Notes under the pieces: model-generated
Told to the model about the DNA's origin: nothing
Database searches by the model: none
Seen by the model: the letters and a program-made list of their open reading frames with translations, nothing else
Assembly: GCA_030390025.1 (NCBI GenBank)
Contig: CM059432.1
Coordinates: 67,892,001-67,956,000 of the forward strand
DNA length: 64,000 nucleotides
Reading direction: 5' to 3'
Source: Squalus acanthias
Lineage: Eukaryota
Part shown: in pieces, positions 6,113 through 50,017 of the stretch
Layout of the letters: each line of letters begins with the position of its first letter
Position numbering within the stretch: the first letter of the stretch is position 1
Translations under genes and position numbers: made by a program

Positions 6113-6689
6113 TGTAGAATTCGCAATATATCGCGATTTTATTAATAAGGAGAAAAACACAGAGTTTCGTTCAAACAGCTTTTATTCCAGCAGAATGCTG
6201 TCAGGTTTTCAAAGTGGACACAAGCAGCTTGTAAAATGGCCGCCGCACCTCGTGACAGAACATTCTAGACTTTTCGACAGGCAGACAAGATGGCGTTCCA
6301 ATAAACATTTGTGCAAGATCGATTAAGACTCAGCACATTTAAGATAATACACGAGACATCATGGGTTTACAGTATACACATAAATACTGAAATCGGTCTC
6401 CCAGGTGCGAATAAGAGCTATTGTACCAAGTAATCAAGAACCCATCCAAAGACATTAATATGTAAAATCCCAACGACTCTACGATGAGAGAGCCGTTAGC
6501 GGGTAGTTACAGAAAACACTTGGAAGCCCCAAAACTCCTCCAGGGAGAACACCGACCGATTAAACAATGGGAGAAATATTAACAGGTACTCAGACAGTTA
6601 CGAGTAGCCCCGAAACCCATTAAAACGAAGATCACCCTATACAAGACATTTGAGCGCCAAACCCTAACAAAAGAAAAGACATTAAGGTT

Positions 6690-6720
6690 GGGCGGGAAAC
6701 GGAAGATTTTGCACTATAAT
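6690..6720 (+). promoter_or_regulatory. Candidate LTR core promoter (GC box, ETS-like site, TATA-like box)
   Basis: GGGCGG 6690-6695, CGGAAG 6700-6705 and TATAAT 6715-6720, with a pyrimidine-rich initiator-like tract ~25 nt downstream. Motif inference only. Confidence 0.45.
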
Positions 6721-7491
6721 TGCAAGCTCCAAACCGTCCATCTCTCTCTTATTCTTGGCTCTTGACTCTTGACTCTTATCCTCGTGGCTGCCCTTGACTC
6801 GCCGTCTTGTTCCTGTTTGATGAACTGGGCTCTGAAGCCTTGAAGCGGGCGCACCATCCCGATAAGTCGGTAAACGGTGTTGGAACCGAAGGCCCGAGAT
6901 GAGATGAGATGAGATGAGATGAGATGAAAAGAGAAGAAGACCATACTTATCGCCACGGTCAGTAAGCTCCGACCGCGCCTGTAGGTCGAATAGACATTTT
7001 CCTTGCCAGGAAGACTTCTTCGAGTTTTACAGAACTGCCAGGAAGATTATTCTTCGAATTCTATCGCATCCGTGCGAGGGCACAGGAAGACTCTTTTTTG
7101 AGTAGAGTCGGAACTCCGAGGACAACACAGATCTTCATGACAGCAGACGTTCCAGCCTGCTAGCCGGAGCAGAAACGAGTAAACAAGTGGGGCCAGGAGA
7201 CCCCCTGATCGACACGTGGGCGCTGCGGTGAAAAACATCCGATCAGAGTTTTCGGAATTCTCCGAGTTATCACGAGTGGTGAGCATGAGTCTCGAATCCT
7301 ACGAATCTAGCTTAGGACAGATATTGATAGGGGAGGGTTTTAAGTATTAAGGATAATTGTAATGTGTGCCCCCATTTACGATGTGTCGTTCGTTCCTCGT
7401 TTCCCTGAAATTAATTACATAACTGCGTGTAAGATTGTACTGTCATTAATCTGTGCTTATGACATGTATTTCGTAATCTTAAATATTATGC

Positions 7492-7497
7492 AATAAA
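7492..7497 (+). promoter_or_regulatory. Candidate LTR polyadenylation signal (equivalent 15195-15200 in the 3' LTR)
   Basis: AATAAA downstream of the putative promoter in both LTRs, in an AT-rich context. Confidence 0.5.
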
Positions 7498-7741
7498 GAT
7501 TTTCCATTTCGTACCATTCAACCGAGTCTACCTGAGTTTCATCTCCATTACTGCTCTCGCATCTAAGTCCAGTGTCTAGAACCGTAAGGGCGAGTGGGTC
7601 GAACCACTCACAGGTGTGTCTAGTGCTCCCAGACTGGCTGGAGACCAGAACAGGCAACAAGGCCTAAACCCGCACTAGCACCCGGGCTGCACAGAGCCAC
7701 ACGAATCTCACAGGCTGAGAGACAAAAAACCCTTACAGAAA

Positions 7742-9549
7742 ATGGCGACCGCGGCAGGACACTGGCAGCGAGAGAATAATGTGTTCGACCCTGGTATGAA
7801 TGGGCGAAATGTCATGGAAGAGAGAATAGCAGATTATGTGTTCGGAAAAGTAAATTTGACTAAGAAATGGATAAGTGACCTGCTAGTGGATAAGTGTCCA
7901 CTAGAGGCAGCCGAGAGGTGGACAGATAGTAAGGAACATAAAAAGACAGTCGAGAAAGCAGTCTGGTTAATGTGTTATAAAAGGCAGGTCCAGATTTCAA
8001 ACCAGGTCATTACAGCGCAGGCAGCTCAGATCAAGAGTTTAGAGGTGGAAATGGACGAGAAGGTCGCGGGGGGGGGCAGCAGCTCATCACGACTTTAAAT
8101 GCGTTACATCAAGAACGCCAGTTAGTCACCAACCACCATGAAGCAAAAATAGATTACCTCGAGTGCCAGGTCACCGAGGCAAAGTTAAGTGAGGGTAGAT
8201 TAAAGGAACGATGTGCCCGCCTAGCTGCCCAAATAAAAGCCCAGGAAGAGAGCTTAACGGGGTTTAGGGCGGCATATAAGATGGCCCTCGAGGATAAATT
8301 TCAGGGGGCCGATCACAGCGTCTGCCAAAGAGAGATAGGGAACCTTAAAAATGCCTTGAACAAAGCGCACGGCATGGTGTGCCTTATCAGTCCGTCAGCA
8401 CACCAGCCGCTAGTAGATGAGGAGTTTCAGAAATCCCCACCGAACAAAGCAAAGGAAGTATTAGCCACTACGCCCTCCGCGCCACCCAGCTATTCGGCAA
8501 CCTGGGTGAGGGAGGAAGTAGTAGAAGAAACGAAAGAGCCCACTGAGGGAGAAGTGGAAAAGGGACCGTTGTGTCCGGTTACGGGTATCAAAAGAGGCCC
8601 GAACGGAGCGAATGCGGCAGAGGGGGATCTCCTCAACCAGCTTGTGTTGCCTCACAGCTCACACCAGCTGAGGGTTATGATCAGTCACGTACGGAAGCTG
8701 GCCGAGTCAGACGACCCTTCCGTACATTTCAGGGAAGTAGAGCAAACCGCAGCCATTAACGGCTGCGATGATGGGGAAAAAGCAAAAATGCTGTTATTCT
8801 CATTAGACAGCTCGATCCTTCAGTGTCTCTCAGACGAGAGCAAGAGGGGAATTAATACCTATGGGGAGCTAAGAGATGAGGTCCTAGAAGTGTTGGGAAT
8901 GGACGATGAAGGTCCGTTCGTTAGACTGGGACAAACAGTGCAGATGGAGGGAGAACCCCCGAAGGTTTTCGCCGACAGGCTGTGGCCAGTATATCAACGT
9001 AGCTGCCCAGGCGCACCAGCGCGTCACCGCCTAGACGGTGTCGGTTTAACTCATTGGCTCAGGTGTATAGTAGCCAACAGTTTGCCAGCCGTCAGGGAGC
9101 AGGCCAAAGCGTGGTTTGATCCCACTAACCCCGCCACAACAGAGGAGTCGGTCCTAAATCGACTCACGGTAGGGTACCGTAATACCAGGAGTATGGGAGC
9201 ACGTCCCCTTAAGGGAAAGGTGCATGAGGTACGACCCGCAGCCCCGGCTCAAAAGGAGTGGCATCAGGAGGGTAACCGCGCCCCGCAGGCCAGCAATGCT
9301 TGTTACGGGTGTGGGAAGACAGGGCACTGGCGCAAGAACTGCAGGAACCCTTGGAAGGATTCCAGGGATAGAAATCCCGCGGTCCGAGCCCAGGCGCCTG
9401 TCTCTGATAGGGGAGCTAGTGCACCCATCCATCCCGACGCGATCGAATCAGTGTTGGGAGCCATGCGCAACCTCATGAGTGCGCATGGAAGGGTGGCGGT
9501 TGCTACCGGCCCCGCAGGTGCCACAGCCCCGTCCAATAGTACCCAATGA
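7742..9549 (+). CDS. gag: Gag polyprotein (~602 aa if the frameshift in the G9 run at 8068-8076 is corrected)
   Basis: ORF 7742-8098 joins the frame that is open from 8077 to 9549. N-terminal coiled coil; PSAPPSY 8473-8493; MHR-like QMEGEPPKVFADRL 8941-8982; zinc knuckle CYGCGKTGHWRKNC 9301-9342. Confidence 0.85.
7743..7760 (+). other. Primer-binding site, tRNA-Arg (TCG type)
   Basis: TGGCGACCGCGGCAGGAC, 5 nt after the LTR end, is the reverse complement of ...GTCCTGCCGCGGTCG-CCA, which I recall as the 3' end of vertebrate tRNA-Arg(TCG). Confidence 0.85.
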
Positions 9550-10659
9550 CTAGAGCCCACGCAGCCTGCCTACCTGTGTCCTTTTAAAAGACACGCACAG
9601 GAGGGGCTCTCCGGTGAGGAGGCCAGGTTAAAAGAGCAGGCCTTGCGGGAGGAGAACGCCCGCTTAATAGGGAAAATAGATGGGCTGGAAGGGCAGCTTA
9701 GAGAGCAGGCCCTGCGGGAGGAGAACGCCCGCTTAATGGGAAAGTTAGACGTGCTCAGGCTAGAAGGGCAGCTTAGAGAGATAAAAGCAGCCTACAAGGG
9801 AGCCAGAAGCAGGGATTTAAACCAGTGCAAACTGTACAAGCCAGGTGCACAAGGGAAAACCACAGGGGCAAAACCTGCGAGTGGGGACTCGCAGCCCCAG
9901 GTAGGACCACAGGGCACACAGGCAGGCAGAGCAGCTTGCATCAGGGAAGGAGGCATCCTGGAAAATTGTGAAACATTTTTGTGGGGTTGGGAGTCAGATG
10001 AGGGAGAGTTCCGGGAACTCAAGTCAGATGAGGATAGTGAAGGTAGTGGAGAGTGGGTATCGGAGGACGCAAGGGTCGCCCCCGATTCAGGTATAGGGAG
10101 GACAGGGGCTGCAGATAGAGATCCACACAGGGTGGACACCGAGGCTGCAGGTCCCGAACACAGGAGGGAGGAGCTAGGGGAGGCGGAGTCAGCCACTGTG
10201 AGACCACAGGGCGTGACGGCGGAAACCTCAGAGCCCGAGCCGCCCGCCTTGAACGTCCTGCCCTCGAGGGAGGTAGGGATTGCGAGTGAAGGGCCGCCTG
10301 CTGGGCCGAGCAGGGCGGTGCCACAAGCTGCAAGTCCCGAGGTCAGGGAGGCGGAGTCAGGGGAGGCGGAGCCAGCGACTGTGGTGGGACCACAGGCCGT
10401 CCCGGTGGAAGTCTCGGAACCCGGTCCGTCGGTCCTGGGATTCCTGCCCCCGACAACTCCTCGTAGGTCAAGTCGAGCACCCCAGCCCAGGAAAATGTGG
10501 TCATGTCCCCAGACTGCCCCAAGGCGTAGGCTCAAGGTTAGGGCAGCCCAGGAAGGGCCCAGTCCCATCGCAGCAGCAACAGGCTACGGCAGATCAAAGG
10601 AAGGGGTCAGTGCCCTCCCACCGTCGGGAAGAGCTCGCAGCAGCCTTCTCAGAATTTAA
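9550..10659 (+). CDS. In-frame ORF after the gag stop (369 aa; coiled coil plus acidic/Pro-rich disordered region) occupying the pol position, with no PR/RT/IN motifs
   Basis: Open in the gag frame from the codon after TGA 9547-9549 to TAA 10657-10659. Contains a 69-bp tandem duplication from 9634 and a duplicated GEAE.ATV..PQ.V..E.SEP.P..L..LP segment. Confidence 0.6.
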   Translation, partial: LEPTQPAYLCPFKRHAQEGLSGEEARLKEQALREENARLIGKIDGLEGQLREQALREENARLMGKLDVLRLEGQLREIKAAYKGARSRDLNQCKLYKPGAQGKTTGAKPASGDSQPQVGPQGTQAGRAACIREGGILENCETFLWGWESDEGEFRELKSDEDSEGSGEWVSEDARVAPDSGIGRTGAADRDPHRVDTEAAGPEHRREELGEAESATVRPQGVTAETSEPEPPALNVLPSREVGIASEGPPAGPSRAVPQAASPEVREAESGEAEPATVVGPQAVPVEVSEPGPSVLGFLPPTTPRRSSRAPQPRKMWSCPQTAPRRRLKVRAAQEGPSPIAAATGYGRSKEGVSALPPSGRARSSLLRI

Positions 10660-10691
10660 AGGGGCCGCCCTGGGAACGGGCGGCGCTGTAC

Positions 10692-10844
10692 AGTAATAAG
10701 TTTAAGTTTAGGATAAGTTTCTAGGTTTATAGTTTAAGGTTAAGAATAAGTTTATAGTTTTAGAAAAGGTTATAAGTTTATAGTTTTAGATAAGGTTATA
10801 AGTTTATAGTTTTAAATAAGGTTAAGTTTGTAGTTTAATTTTAA
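10692..10844. repeat. AT-rich, almost C-free tandem repeat (26-bp period)
   Basis: ATAAGTTTATAGTTTTAGAWAAGGTT-like units start at 10746, 10772 and 10798; only one C in ~150 nt. Confidence 0.85.
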
Positions 10845-11017
10845 CAGAAAATGGCAAAATGATGGGAGCTTTAGAGATAGGTCTAGTTAAAGTTTATTTA
10901 GTGAACATTGAAGTTTACGTGAGGCGAGGTCAGGGGACCCGCTCACCCTTCACAAAAGCCAGAGACTCTTGCGAGGCTGGCTACCTCATTCTATCTGATC
11001 ACAGGAACCAAGGAAGG

Positions 11018-13369
11018 ATGGAACGAATTCTAGTATTGCTCGCGGCAATCGGATGTGGATTGGCCTATCGAGGCCGCACCAAGGATGTCGTGGTGTTTGG
11101 ATGCTCCGGGGACACGGCCCCCATCGCGGTGGATGGGACCGGAAGACGGGAGGCTGAGGAGACCACCACCTATTTCCACAAGGGAAGGTGGCCAGGATGG
11201 CTGGGAACAAACTCAACGGAGTATTCTAGCACATCGGGGTTTGCCTACCAAGAGACTTCTTTAATGTGCCCCAAAGTAAGGATCATCGCACCCAGGATCA
11301 GCGTCACCGTCGGCAAACGGATTTGTTTGACTTGTAATGGGAATGTCCCATTGAGCCGATGGTGGTGGCTGCGAAAGCTGAGCAAAAACATGAGGAACTC
11401 TTCGGTCGAGTGGGAACGACTGGGTAATAATACCCATCGGACAATTACGGGGACAAACGGACAAGTGAGAGTCTGTTGGGACAAATGGTGGGAACCGGAT
11501 GAGGGAATTTATGTATGCATGTGGGGGTCAAAGTACGCTTGCCCCAAAGGCATCTCCATATTTTTCATTAATCAATGGCAGGATAACGGACAGGGGATGA
11601 GGTGGGATGCGAGCACCAGGGGGTGCGGAGCCCCATACTCTTCGATCCCGGTAAATGCCACTGAGCTCATTACGCGCCCACGCAAAGCCCCGCCCACGAT
11701 TCCGGTGGTTCTAGCTAAAGAGGAAGGGTGCCCTAAAACTAGTAAGGGACCCGGGAATGGTTTGGTACTGGTCCCCACAGACCAGATACTATTTCAGGGG
11801 GTACATTACGCGGTGGCCTCGGTGATTTTAAATCTCACCGAGGTGCGGTTACCAGAGTGGTGCCCCAAAAAGACGGAACAGTTATATCAGGTCCTGTTGA
11901 CCAAGATGTTCAGACAATTTTACGAATTCGATTTTGCGGAAATTGATAAAACAAGTTTGTACACCGCACCACATGAAGTTTCTGATCAGGTGGGGAGGCA
12001 AAGAAGGGGTGTAGTGAACGACGCGTTCACTGCTTTTAACACGGGTACATCTGTGGTCAACGCTCTAGACAGCGTGGAGCTGCAGACCCAGATTAATGGT
12101 TTAAAGACGCAATTAAAAGACATTCTAACAGATGAAAATAAAGTGGTTGGGTCGGGTTTACACGAGGACCAAGCAATAACTCTCCATTTAAAGGAAATTA
12201 TAGCAGAGTTAGAGAAACATGCAAAGACGGTAAATGCCCTGATTAGGGAAGATCGGAATGCATCCGATCAAGCTGCGCAGAATGAGGTGTGCGTGCTTTA
12301 CGGGGCGTGGTTACTGGGCGAGGGCCGCAGTAATTTGGAGGATTTAAAACAAGGTTTGGTCCCGTCCTGGATAAGTAACAAACACCTGCGGGCGCTCCAC
12401 CCTTTTCAGAACGCATTAAGCCCGTGCCAGCTCAGGCTAGCTTCAGAAGCATACCCAGTCCCCGTGGACTGCGGACGATCAAACCATACTATCATGGGTA
12501 TAGTATTACGTATGCCGGTTTTGGGCGACACAGCAAAGCCCGCCCCGGTGTATCGGGTAGAGAACATTGGTGTCATTCAGGGGGGAGCCCACATTCGCTA
12601 TGCAGCGGTTCCACCCTACGTCATCCGCTGGGAGCAAACGATGACAGGTACAGATCTCTCTGGTTGTCGTGGCAGGGGAGCACACATAATACTGTGACCC
12701 CAGCACTTGAATGCCTTTTTAACACCACAGTGCGGGTTCAGAACGGCTGGCGCCAAGTCCATGAATTGCACCATGGAGGCAATGGCACAAGATCATGTGC
12801 CTCCGCAGGTAGCATACATCGGGGGTGGAACATATTGTGTTACCACTGCAGCGCAACACTACCAGCATGGAAACCGTAGCCGGTGTCCGGTGAGTGACAG
12901 CAGTTTCTGTTTCAAACCCAGGGCGGAAGTTCAAGTAGCACAACAGCGAATTGTCCCAATCCCTGAACCATCCACGGTTCATCTCACCGTAAAAGAGAAT
13001 TTCACCGACTTGCAGCGATTCGTCGCGCATTTCGGATACCTCATTCCCCCTCTCCCTGAACACCTCACCAAGCTTTTGAAAGCCGTCGCGGTGTCACAGA
13101 AACATTTTTACACACTCGAGCAGAAAACTGTCGAAATAGGGACAGACATTCTGGATATAGTAATTCCACCGTGGTGGAATCTGTTCACCAATATTGAAGT
13201 ACCTTCATGGATCAGAATAGCCTCCCACATTTTAGTCGTATGCCAAGTTTTTATTGTAGTGTACCTATTGGTCGTACATTGTAAGAGAGGCAAACGCCTC
13301 ACCAAGCATGAAAACACGGGAGAGTGGCGAGAACGTTATGTGCACGTGCACAACGAAAGCACCGTGTAA
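11018..13369 (+). CDS. env: Envelope glycoprotein, class I F-like fusion protein with N-terminal Ig-like domain (783 codons; one in-frame TGA at 12695-12697)
   Basis: Signal peptide MERILVLLAAIGCGLA; Ig motifs; furin site RQRR 11996-12007 followed by a fusion-peptide-like segment and heptad repeat; Cys-rich F1-like core; many N-x-S/T sequons; TM segment ~13210-13280; short tail. ORFs 10859-12697 and 12707-13369 are in the same frame. Confidence 0.88.
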
Positions 13370-13815: not shown

Positions 13816-15439
13816 TGTAGAATTCGCAATATATCGCGATTTTATTAATAAGGAGAAAAACACAGAGTTTCGTTCAAACAGCTTTTATTCCAGCAGAATG
13901 CTGTCAGGTTTTCAAAGTGGACACAAGCAGCTTGTAAAATGGCCGCCGCACCTCGTGACAGAACATTCTAGACTTTTCGACAGGCAGACAAGATGGCGTA
14001 CCAATAAACATTTGTGCAAGATCGATTAAGACTCAGCACATTTAAGATAATACACGAGACATCATGGGTTTACAGTATACACATAAATACTGAAATCGGT
14101 CTCCCAGGTGCGAATAAGAGCTATTGTACCAAGTAATCAAGAACCCATCCAAAGACATTAATATGTAAAATCCCAACGACTCTACGATGAGAGAGCCGTT
14201 AGCGGGTAGTTACAGAAAACACTTGGAAGCCCCAAAACCCCTCCAGGGAGAACACCGACCGATTAAACAATGGGAGAAATATTAACAGGTACTCAGACAG
14301 TTACGAGTAGCCCCGAAACCCATTAAAACGAAGATCACCCTATACAAGACATTTGAGCGCCAAACCCTAACAAAAGAAAAGACATTAAGGTTGGGCGGGA
14401 AACGGAAGATTTTGCACTATAATTGCAAGCTCCAAACCGTCCATCTCTCTCTTATTCTTGGCTCTTGACTCTTGACTCTTATCCTCGTGGCTGCCCTTGA
14501 CTCGCCGTCTTGTTCCTGTTTGATGAACTGGGCTCTGAAGCCTTGAAGCGGGCGCACCATCCCGATAAGTCGGTAAACGGTGTTGGAACCGAAGGCCCGA
14601 GATGAGATGAGATGAGATGAGATGAGATGAAAAGAGAAGAAGACCATACTTATCGCCACGGTCAGTAAGCTCCGACCGCGCCTGTAGGTCGAATAGACAT
14701 TTTCCTTGCCAGGAAGACTTCTTCGAGTTTTACAGAACTGCCAGGAAGATTATTCTTCGAATTCTATCGCATCCGTGCGAGGGCACAGGAAGACTCTTTT
14801 TTGAGTAGAGTCGGAACTCCGAGGACAACACAGATCTTCATGACAGCAGACGTTCCAGCCTGCTAGCCGGAGCAGAAACGAGTAAACAAGTGGGGCCAGG
14901 AGACCCCCTGATCGACACGTGGGCGCTGCGGTGAAAAACATCCGATCAGAGTTTTCGGAATTCTCCGAGTTATCACGAGTGGTGAGCATGAGTCTCGAAT
15001 CCTACGAATCTAGCTTAGGACAGATATTGATAGGGGAGGGTTTTAAGTATTAAGGATAATTGTAATGTGTGCCCCCATTTACGATGTGTCGTTCGTTCCT
15101 CGTTTCCCTGAAATTAATTACATAACTGCGTGTAAGATTGTACTGTCATTAATCTGTGCTTATGACATGTATTTCGTAATCTTAAATATTATGCAATAAA
15201 GATTTTCCATTTCGTACCATTCAACCGAGTCTACCTGAGTTTCATCTCCATTACTGCTCTCGCATCTAAGTCCAGTGTCTAGAACCGTAAGGGCGAGTGG
15301 GTCGAACCACTCACAGGTGTGTCTAGTGCTCCCAGACTGGCTGGAGACCAGAACAGGCAACAAGGCCTAAACCCGCACTAGCACCCGGGCTGCACAGAGC
15401 CACACGAATCTCACAGGCTGAGAGACAAAAACCCTTACA
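13816..15439 (+). repeat. 3' LTR (1624 bp)
   Basis: Direct repeat of 6113-7737; ends CCCTTACA, followed by TSD CAAC. Confidence 0.97.
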
Positions 15440-48080: not shown

Positions 48081-48225
48081 CTAGCACACACACACAAACA
48101 TACTCCTACTGTCCTCCTCCTTCCTTCCCGCAGGTCCTCTCTGCCTGGGTTTCATAGGCTGCAGTGTGGTCCTCCCGACCCCGCTGCTGGTCCACGCTGC
48201 GCCACTCCTGGGCGTCGACCTCGCT

Positions 48226-48766
48226 GCTGGGCTCGTCCTCGCCCCTGGGCCTCGTCCTCGCCCCTGGGCCTCGTCCTCGCTCCTGGGTCCCGACCTCGCT
48301 CCTGGGTCCCGACCTCGCTCCTGGGTCCCAACCTCGCGCCTGGGCCCCGTCCTCACCCCTGGGCCCCGTCCTCGCCCCTGGGTCCCGACTTCGCTCCTGG
48401 GCCTCGTCCTCGCTCCTGGGCCTCGACCTCGCTCCTGAGCCCCGTCCTCGCCCCTGGGCCTCGTCCTCGCCCCGGGTCCCGTCCTCGCTCCTGGGTCCCG
48501 ACCTCGCTCCTGGGCCTTGACCTCGCTCCTGGGCCTCGACCTCGCTCCTGAGCCCCGTCCTCGCCCCTGGGCCTCGTCCTCGCCCCGGGTCCCGTCCTCG
48601 CTCCTGGGTCCCGACCTCGCTCCTGGGCCTTGACCTCGCTCCTGGGCCTCGACCTCGCTCCTGAGCCCCGTCCTCGTCCCTGGGCCTCGTCCTCGCCCCG
48701 GGTCCCGTCCTTGCTCCTGGGTCCCGACCTCGCTCCTGGGCCTCAACCTCGCTCCTGGGTCCCGAC
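48226..48766. repeat. GC-rich 19-bp minisatellite (CTGGGTCCCGACCTCGCTC variants) with a 113-bp higher-order repeat
   Basis: About 28 units; the diagnostic CTGAGCCCC variant recurs at 48435, 48548 and 48661. Confidence 0.95.
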
Positions 48767-50017
48767 AGGCTGTCTAAGCAGCCAATCAAAACACAGAATT
48801 CGCACAGACAGCGAACAAGGAAGTGAGTAAGCTCTTAAAATTCTAACATTTTAAACATGTTAGAGAGAGCAAAACAAATATTGGAGCTCTCACATGGGGA
48901 AAAGGGAAACCCTAAATAAAGATGAACAAACTTTTTTTTTTTTAAATAATTTTTGAAAAACATTTTTAAAAATTTTTTATTTTTATTAAAATGGATAAAT
49001 TTGACACTGCACAAAACTAAAAATGAGTTTTTCAGGGCCAGAACCTTTGTTTAGCAGTCAATACACTGTTAAAACTCCAGTTACACCTAATCACATTAGG
49101 ACTAACTTTTAGTGGGGAATTTAACAGAGTAATTACTGCAGAAGAGCTGAAGTTTTCATCAGTTTTCCTGATTTGAGAGATTACACTGATTGCCGGCTCT
49201 GTGACGGGGGTCGGGGGGCGGGGGGGGGAGGGGGGCAGCGGTGTGGGTGGGCACAGCGCAGCCAGTGTCGGAGCAGTGAATGACAGACTGCAATTTCAGA
49301 ATTTCCGCATGCACTTGCACATGCGCCAAATCCCGAAGTTGTGGTCAGTTTCAAAGCCGGAATGACGGCGAACGCTACCAGTTCGCTGTCATCCGGACTG
49401 CAAATTCTGGGCCAATGTAAAATATCTTTAATAGTATGCATCAAAGTAAAATATGTTCTGATGTTATTTTGATTTTTTTGAAATTAAGTCATACATCATA
49501 ACTGGTAAATATGCCACATTTAAATGTAATATATAATGAGCATAGTAGGTATGTTACCAATGCAAAAATGTAATTATTTTAATTTACATTTGTTTCTTAG
49601 GTATGTCAAGAAGCTATGGTATGTTATACCTTGCTAAACATTTATGTTCATGTTCCTTCATACCAGGCAAGGGGGAATTTATTAAAATCCATGTGAATTT
49701 ATTGTGCTGTTATGCTCACATATCAACAATTTTTGTTAATGCCTTTCATTCAAAGGCAGCTGATGTGTCAGTAACAACTGCCCTCATTTTATATTCTGAT
49801 ACTTTTGCTTAACGCAGGTTTTGTTCATTCAAGGTTAGGGGCCTCTGGAAGCATTTCTCAGAATACACCGTATCGATGAGCTACTGATCTAGAGCACAAA
49901 TTTAGGCAGAAAAATCAAACCAATATCAAACAAAAGATAAATGATGACTACCTAAAAAGAAAGAATTGCCTTTCACGACTTCAGGACCTCTGGAAATGTT
50001 TTACAGCCAATGAATTA

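Follow-up and report, generated by a model that had tools for sequence, protein, structure and literature searches.

What does an immunoglobulin-like (Ig-like) domain do at the N-terminus of a retroviral envelope protein (Env) whose fusion machinery resembles the F proteins of paramyxoviruses, and where did it come from? This question is raised by an endogenous retrovirus (ERV) in a 64,000-nucleotide stretch of the Squalus acanthias genome (the window; contig CM059432.1, positions 67,892,001 to 67,956,000). Our answer, to which we assign a probability of roughly 0.62, is that a divergent domain with a predicted V/I-type Ig fold precedes an F-type (class Ib) fusion core and is likely a built-in attachment (receptor-binding) head. 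The motifs, the conservation of the domain, the purifying selection on it, the anatomy of the provirus and a core shared with relatives that carry other heads or none are direct observations; the role is argued from them below.

The Ig-like domain and the fusion core

The env gene and its parts are as follows (aa, Env residues; pLDDT, predicted local distance difference test; pN/pS, ratio of nonsynonymous to synonymous differences).

11018..13369, + strand: env, with ATG at 11018, 783 codons and one in-frame stop at codon 560 (12695-12697)
11018..11062, + strand: putative signal peptide (aa 1-15), a hydrophobic N-terminus read off the sequence
11063..11266, + strand: N-terminal arm (aa 16-83), low-confidence beta strands with pLDDT mostly <50; pN/pS 0.41-0.55
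11267..11572, + strand: Ig-like domain (aa 84-185), with B-strand C106, C-strand W117 and F-strand C167, and also C84, C103, C153 and C175
11573..11722, + strand: linker, partly Pro-rich (aa 186-235), pLDDT 26-42, the most variable region
11723..13192, + strand: F-type (class Ib) fusion core, with F2-like part, furin site, fusion peptide, heptad helices and beta domains
11996-12007, + strand: furin site RQRR (aa 327-330)
13214..13282, + strand: transmembrane (TM) helix by hydropathy, followed by a tail of ~28 residues

The three motifs from which a sequence-only reading had proposed the domain lie exactly where it put them: ISVTVGKRICLTC at 11297-11335, WWWLRK at 11360-11377 and DEGIYVC at 11498-11518. 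Its placement of the domain between signal peptide and F2-like region also holds, except that ~65 residues (aa 16-83) come before the domain, and the proposed span of 11264..11530 ends too early, omitting the likely G strand (aa ~175-185), so that the domain covers approximately aa 84-185. A two-Cys domain had been expected, and six conserved Cys are found instead; the linker said to be Pro-rich is moderately so (the sequence has 7 Pro in aa 205-240).

C106, W117 and C167 form the V/I-set signature at Ig spacing, with 61 residues separating the two Cys. The motif D-x-G-x-Y-x-C occurs once across the six frames of the window. Shuffling the 559-aa open reading frame (ORF) 20000 times produces it 36 times, and the longer pattern C..W..DxGxYxC, which was picked post hoc, 4 times. 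The canonical form of this motif is present in the window env but its Asp is not conserved, D161 being replaced by Glu in 29 of 30 loci from sister subfamilies. All 30 of these loci have C84, C103, C106, W117, C153 and G163; 28 have C167 and 29 have C175. The domain is under purifying selection: its pN/pS is 0.29-0.31 with upper bounds <=0.45 in all five comparisons, synonymous sites being near saturation, and its nonsynonymous divergence (dN, 0.23-0.30) lies between that of the core (0.10-0.20) and that of the linker (0.37-0.56).

Sequence and structure comparisons, by Pfam, the Protein Data Bank (PDB), the Atlas and alignment-based modelling, all support the Ig fold. Ig_3 is the sole Pfam family at E<=1 for aa 83-171 (E 0.0075, 17.2 bits) and is also matched by five of five sister-subfamily domains (E 0.001-0.01, 16.7-20.1 bits); these scores stay below the Pfam gathering score of 30, and the domain is therefore filed as Ig-like rather than as a Pfam member. 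All 56 matches of a PDB sequence search are Ig proteins (best E 0.053), and the Atlas rows are V/I-set domains (top score 0.92). A structure model built on a 90-row alignment predicts seven strands (pLDDT 55-77) in a two-sheet beta sandwich of Ig topology, with C106, W117 and C167 on strands B, C and F. In a wide structural search, 37 of rows 11-50 were Ig-domain chains superposed on the domain (root-mean-square deviation 2.1-3.4 A over 73-92 residues), no more than 1 Z unit separating V domains from titin-type I domains. The matches begin at aa 31-32, inside the N-terminal arm, which in the model may add a strand to the domain. A C106-C167 disulfide is predicted, and the strand positions in the model suggest that C103-C153 and C84-C175 perhaps form two more. 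A single-sequence AlphaFold model of the domain (pLDDT 51, no Foldseek match at E<=0.001) was deemed uninformative; on it, a structural aligner favoured the sandwiches of TssK and of a bacterial adhesin.

That the core is of F type, as first suggested from the sequence, is upheld by structural matches to F proteins and by a profile match to foamy virus Env. The modelled core, for which an F-type fold is predicted, matches the F proteins of hPIV3, PIV5 and RSV with a Foldseek E of 1e-10, and the deeper core profile (A3) matches foamy Env at E 4e-4. The class Ib hallmarks are present as well, namely a basic cleavage site (RQRR), a fusion peptide, heptad helices and a TM anchor, and there is no adjacent Cys pair in the 783 Env residues. 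Among the other searches, profile A1 retrieved only coiled coils, the depth of A3 being needed for the foamy match; profile A2, swollen to 418 positions by whole fused proteins, for that reason had no PDB match; and none of 36 members matched Pfam PF00523 at E<=0.5 among the 25 families listed. The F-type core is also matched by models of walleye epsilonretrovirus Envs (WEHV1 and WDSV; BFVD rows 5 and 20), with E values of 6e-12 and 1e-8. This type of Env may thus be wider among fish retroviruses than the papers cited here state.

Origin and role of the N-terminal head

The presence or absence of the domain in related Envs, a check that had been proposed, bears out its modularity: related Envs share the core and carry other heads or none. 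Named Env relatives come mostly from sharks and a skate, and distant Envs align only from aa ~221-237 onward. The signal peptide is joined directly to the core in P0038, eel P0049 and coelacanth P0050, and this headless layout recurs in seven of the eight lokiretrovirus Envs examined, the eighth being partial. Other relatives have heads of 140-230 residues. The head of a bamboo-shark Env, which has related families in the S. acanthias genome, is named Ig-like by UniRef (an automatic name); a frog Env head displays the pattern C..W..D-G-x-V-x-C; and the head of P0037 (residues 10-130) is a Cys-less V-set match (Pfam E 0.045) with no PDB match at E<=1. This last head, which we take to have a CEACAM/CD2-type look, appears more host-like than the Ig domain of the window Env (head A) and is a candidate for a separate, younger capture. 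Cys-rich heads without a Pfam match also occur, and none of seven heads of families C, D and F matched an Ig family of Pfam. The profile of the B-E heads matched only Fc-gamma-RIIa (E 0.7-1), so that the Ig nature of these heads is read by eye and from the one automatic UniRef name. In HHalign comparisons of 36 head pairs, B-C, B-D and B-E reach 94-97%, and head A has a probability <=2.9% against the other heads, reversed controls giving up to 2.8%. Several further F-type Env families with differing N-terminal heads coexist in the genome (L051-L080, L111-L130).

In the tree of cores (midpoint root, long branches meeting among the bare Envs; the out-of-frame row E_L065, with 44 X, ignored), the family of the window Env is recovered with support 97/99, its nearest relatives appear to be families with non-alignable heads (84/88), and bare Envs are placed among Ig-headed amphibian-type Envs. 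Repeated gain, loss or exchange of heads is the simplest reading of this pattern. It may tentatively be taken further, to the proposal that in F-type Envs of those shark, ray and amphibian retroviruses that resemble snakehead retrovirus (SnRV) an N-terminal slot was loaded several times independently, both with host immunoglobulin superfamily (IgSF) domains and with non-Ig heads; head A, the B-E head, the frog head and the Cys-less V-set head would then count, with the same reserve, as IgSF captures. If so, the capture of adhesion domains turns a bare F fusogen into a self-sufficient entry protein, and these Envs form a natural series for class Ib fusogens gaining receptor specificity.

The notion of a captured Ig domain is plausible, given the B-strand Cys, the C-strand Trp and the F-strand Y-x-C, but neither a donor nor a recent date goes with it. 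Among 1.84 billion representatives, 49 matches held no host IgSF protein, and those spanning the domain were close Env relatives only; structural matches share <=21% identity with it, and searches of the host's own genome were filled by copies of the element and thus unable to reveal a donor. Skate Envs share the domain at 71-72% identity, so that its capture is not recent. The likely source of the domain is a host IgSF gene, acquired in the distant past and no longer identifiable.

A possible, if doubtful, alternative derives head A from another virus (for instance, a retroviral receptor-binding domain [RBD] of the RBD-C type) or all heads from one diverged ancient Ig domain. It accommodates the missing host donor, the homology of heads B-E to each other, the layout G-x-x-V/L-x-x-x-C ... 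W ... G-x-x-x-C/W that the B-E heads and head A have in common by eye, and the transfer of RBDs between retroviruses, which is documented (bioRxiv 10.1101/2024.03.17.585361). A single ancestral head is harder to reconcile with a head A that aligns significantly with no other, and an RBD-C source with the absence from RBD-C of the B-F disulfide, both Cys of which head A keeps.

As to function, the sequence-only reading had assumed that F-type fusogens rely on a second protein for attachment. That does not hold generally: with an inserted RBD in the one case and an N-terminal one in the other, foamy virus Env and coronavirus spike carry their own binding domains on an F scaffold, and the scaffold has been proposed to be a minimal fusogen that gained receptor-binding modules (PMC11468914). 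An attachment role for the Ig head likely follows by analogy with such precedents and fits its position, conservation, modularity and intermediate rate of evolution. Furin would cleave the Env at RQRR, and the flexible linker would keep the head attached to the F2-like subunit; the head would bind a cell-surface protein or glycan of the host and, once bound, would bring the fusion core into position and possibly trigger it, all without a separate attachment protein.

It is unlikely, by comparison, that a genuine Ig domain acts instead on host immunity, as a decoy of an IgSF receptor or ligand, or shields the core, with cell binding left to the core itself. Viral Ig domains often modulate immunity, and the existence of bare Envs means that attachment need not depend on a head; mimicry, however, would usually need a likeness to a particular immune receptor, and none is seen here (identity <=21%), whereas the position of the domain and the linker behind it reproduce the layout of RBD-C. 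A purely structural domain, one that covers or steadies the prefusion trimer or passes on the triggering signal, with no host ligand, is unlikely too, and slightly more so: purifying selection, six conserved Cys and an N-terminal arm that seems packed on the domain would suit it, but a long low-confidence linker separates domain and core, and the filling of the same slot by non-alignable modules in sister clades is awkward for fixed packing. A chance motif match in some other beta fold is improbable, the sub-threshold scores and the non-IgSF sandwiches favoured by the single-sequence model being outweighed by Pfam, PDB sequence, language-model and alignment-based structure tests that all indicate IgSF, and by signature residues kept though synonymous sites are saturated.

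The provirus, its copies and its classification

The env gene belongs to a provirus of 9.3 kb with the following parts (LTR, long terminal repeat; TSD, target-site duplication).

6113..7737, + strand: 5' LTR (TG...CA), with the 4-bp TSD CAAC just before it
7743..7760, + strand: primer-binding site complementary to tRNA-Arg(UCG), matching the 3' end (plus CCA) of host tRNA-Arg(tcg) genes
7679..9549, + strand: gag region split over two frames (7679-8098 and 7981-9549); it encodes a CCHC zinc knuckle and ends TGA-CTAG in frame with pol
9550..10659, + strand: pol remnant, from blastp against a pol-bearing copy
13816..15439, + strand: 3' LTR, with the TSD CAAC just after it

The two LTRs are 99.8% identical over 1627 columns (2 mismatches, 1 gap), unusually long (~1.6 kb) and contain microsatellite-like repeats. 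SnRV likewise has tRNA-Arg as its primer. The tRNA-Arg(tcg) used by the element has 424 pattern matches genome-wide and, in a unit with tRNA-Ser(gct), forms long tandem arrays (period ~1.62 kb, C26:38.99-42.2 Mb; L132-L134). TGA-CTAG, at 9547-9553, is a stop-readthrough context, and Gag-Pol is likely made by UGA readthrough. Between pol and env, T/A-rich tandem repeats at 10690-10850 end in TTTTAACAG, a candidate splice acceptor for the env mRNA; no splice joint into env was seen in env-matching contigs, which says nothing either way on expression. Elsewhere in the window there are a minisatellite with a 19-bp period (48224-48804) and many decayed reverse-transcriptase fragments that look LINE-type from their ORFs.

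The pol remnant retains the first ~16 and last ~290 Pol residues, the protease (PR), reverse transcriptase (RT), RNase H (RH) and integrase (IN) parts having been swapped for a short coiled-coil-like repeat. Among 20 copies fetched for comparison, picked for long env frames, 12 have an insert of pol length and eight the same deletion as the window copy; the order PR-RT-tether-RNase H-IN is found in both pol-bearing copies scanned. In the pol-deleted subfamily the tandem repeat (9576-9820) is in frame and the ORF stays open into the Pol tail; this may be a non-autonomous form whose product has been kept.

The family, whose host is a cartilaginous fish, is young and many-copy. Genomic matches to the Ig region at 98-100% identity number at least 150 (150 scored of 5481 candidates), and among the first 30 there are 15 within open frames of >=785 residues; the Ig domain is thus a family trait and not an oddity of the stop-bearing window copy. 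Contigs 95-99% identical to the window env (11018-12600) turned up in runs X1, X5, X10 and X12, from four organisms and four studies, one of which may have supplied this assembly; this hints that the element has lately spread between related hosts.

Frog and coelacanth proteins share 44-45% identity with Pol, gypsy-type ones <=34%. Bit scores of Pol are 210 with the MLV RT, up to 198 with a protease-RT chain whose entry name suggests foamy type, and 146 with Ty3. By eye, over 109 residues of the RT reference alignment in the supplement of PMC7947760, identity is 52 to SnRV, 41, 39 and 34 to Loki-Lch, -Oja and -Xla, and ~35 to CoEFV. The element combines a dual RNase H Pol with an F-like Env, as lokiretroviruses do, a trait common to other retroviruses; the lokiretrovirus label was nevertheless dropped, the RT being closer by eye to SnRV and having the motif LPQGF in place of the C/T-PFG of the Loki RTs in that alignment. 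Lokiretroviruses were reported from none of six cartilaginous-fish genomes (PMC7947760), whereas an SnRV-like lineage (CmiERV lineage I) occurs in elephant shark (PMC4422223). We therefore provisionally call the element an SnRV-like ERV, a call made on RT sequences compared by eye.

Comparison with known systems

Ig heads on retroviral Envs and F-type retroviral Envs have each been published already. The pairing of the two in a single retroviral Env is unreported in the literature searched, subscription journals and preprint supplements lying outside its scope; term look-ups in excerpts of PMC9040795, PMC13709493, PMC10435555, PMC12193657, PMC4977317 and PMC4422223, and of bioRxiv 10.1101/2023.10.26.564294 and 10.1101/2024.07.05.601823, did not return this combination.

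The closest named RT, by eye, is that of SnRV and SnRV-like ERVs (PMC4422223, PMC4977317, PMC12193657); the Env tail of SnRV is 136 residues long, against ~28 here, and that virus has accessory ORFs as well. With lokiretrovirus Env (Wang and Han, 2020; PMC7947760) the window Env shares a signal peptide, basic cleavage site, fusion peptide, coiled coil and TM helix, and with the virus the dual RNase H Pol; the motif at the start of the core, PGP-x-x-G-[IL]-V-L, is similar by eye, but all except the partial one of the lokiretrovirus Envs examined lack a head. Paramyxovirus and pneumovirus F and coronavirus spike have a core fold like that of the window Env; paramyxovirus F is without an N-terminal head and 8-14% identical to it, and spike illustrates that N-terminal binding modules can join an F scaffold (PMC11468914). 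Foamy virus Env, also of class Ib, has a large RBD of a different fold inserted ahead of its furin site (PMC11468914), unlike the 100-residue Ig head placed here before the core.

In its head, the window Env resembles the gamma-type Envs with RBD-C (MLV, FeLV, EnvP(b)1) and Env-Dbi, which likewise have an N-terminal Ig-fold domain. Type-C gamma Env combines an Ig-like RBD with a proline-rich region (Hotzel; bioRxiv 10.1101/2024.03.17.585361), and Env-Dbi has a captured SIRP-like IgV RBD that keeps the B-F disulfide (same preprint) and has a clear donor, SIRP, whereas head A has none. The gamma-type Envs differ in having the CXnCC motif and the gamma scaffold, in place of which the window Env has no adjacent Cys pair and an F-type core. 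The bare, Ig-headed and otherwise-headed cores of one fish and amphibian retrovirus group would make a compact case of a modular F scaffold, and the small, separable head would make the receptor of a cartilaginous-fish retrovirus approachable via simple binding assays. If the head is what it appears to be, retroviruses have reached the layout of an Ig head and flexible linker, familiar from the gamma-type Envs, on a second, unrelated fusion scaffold.
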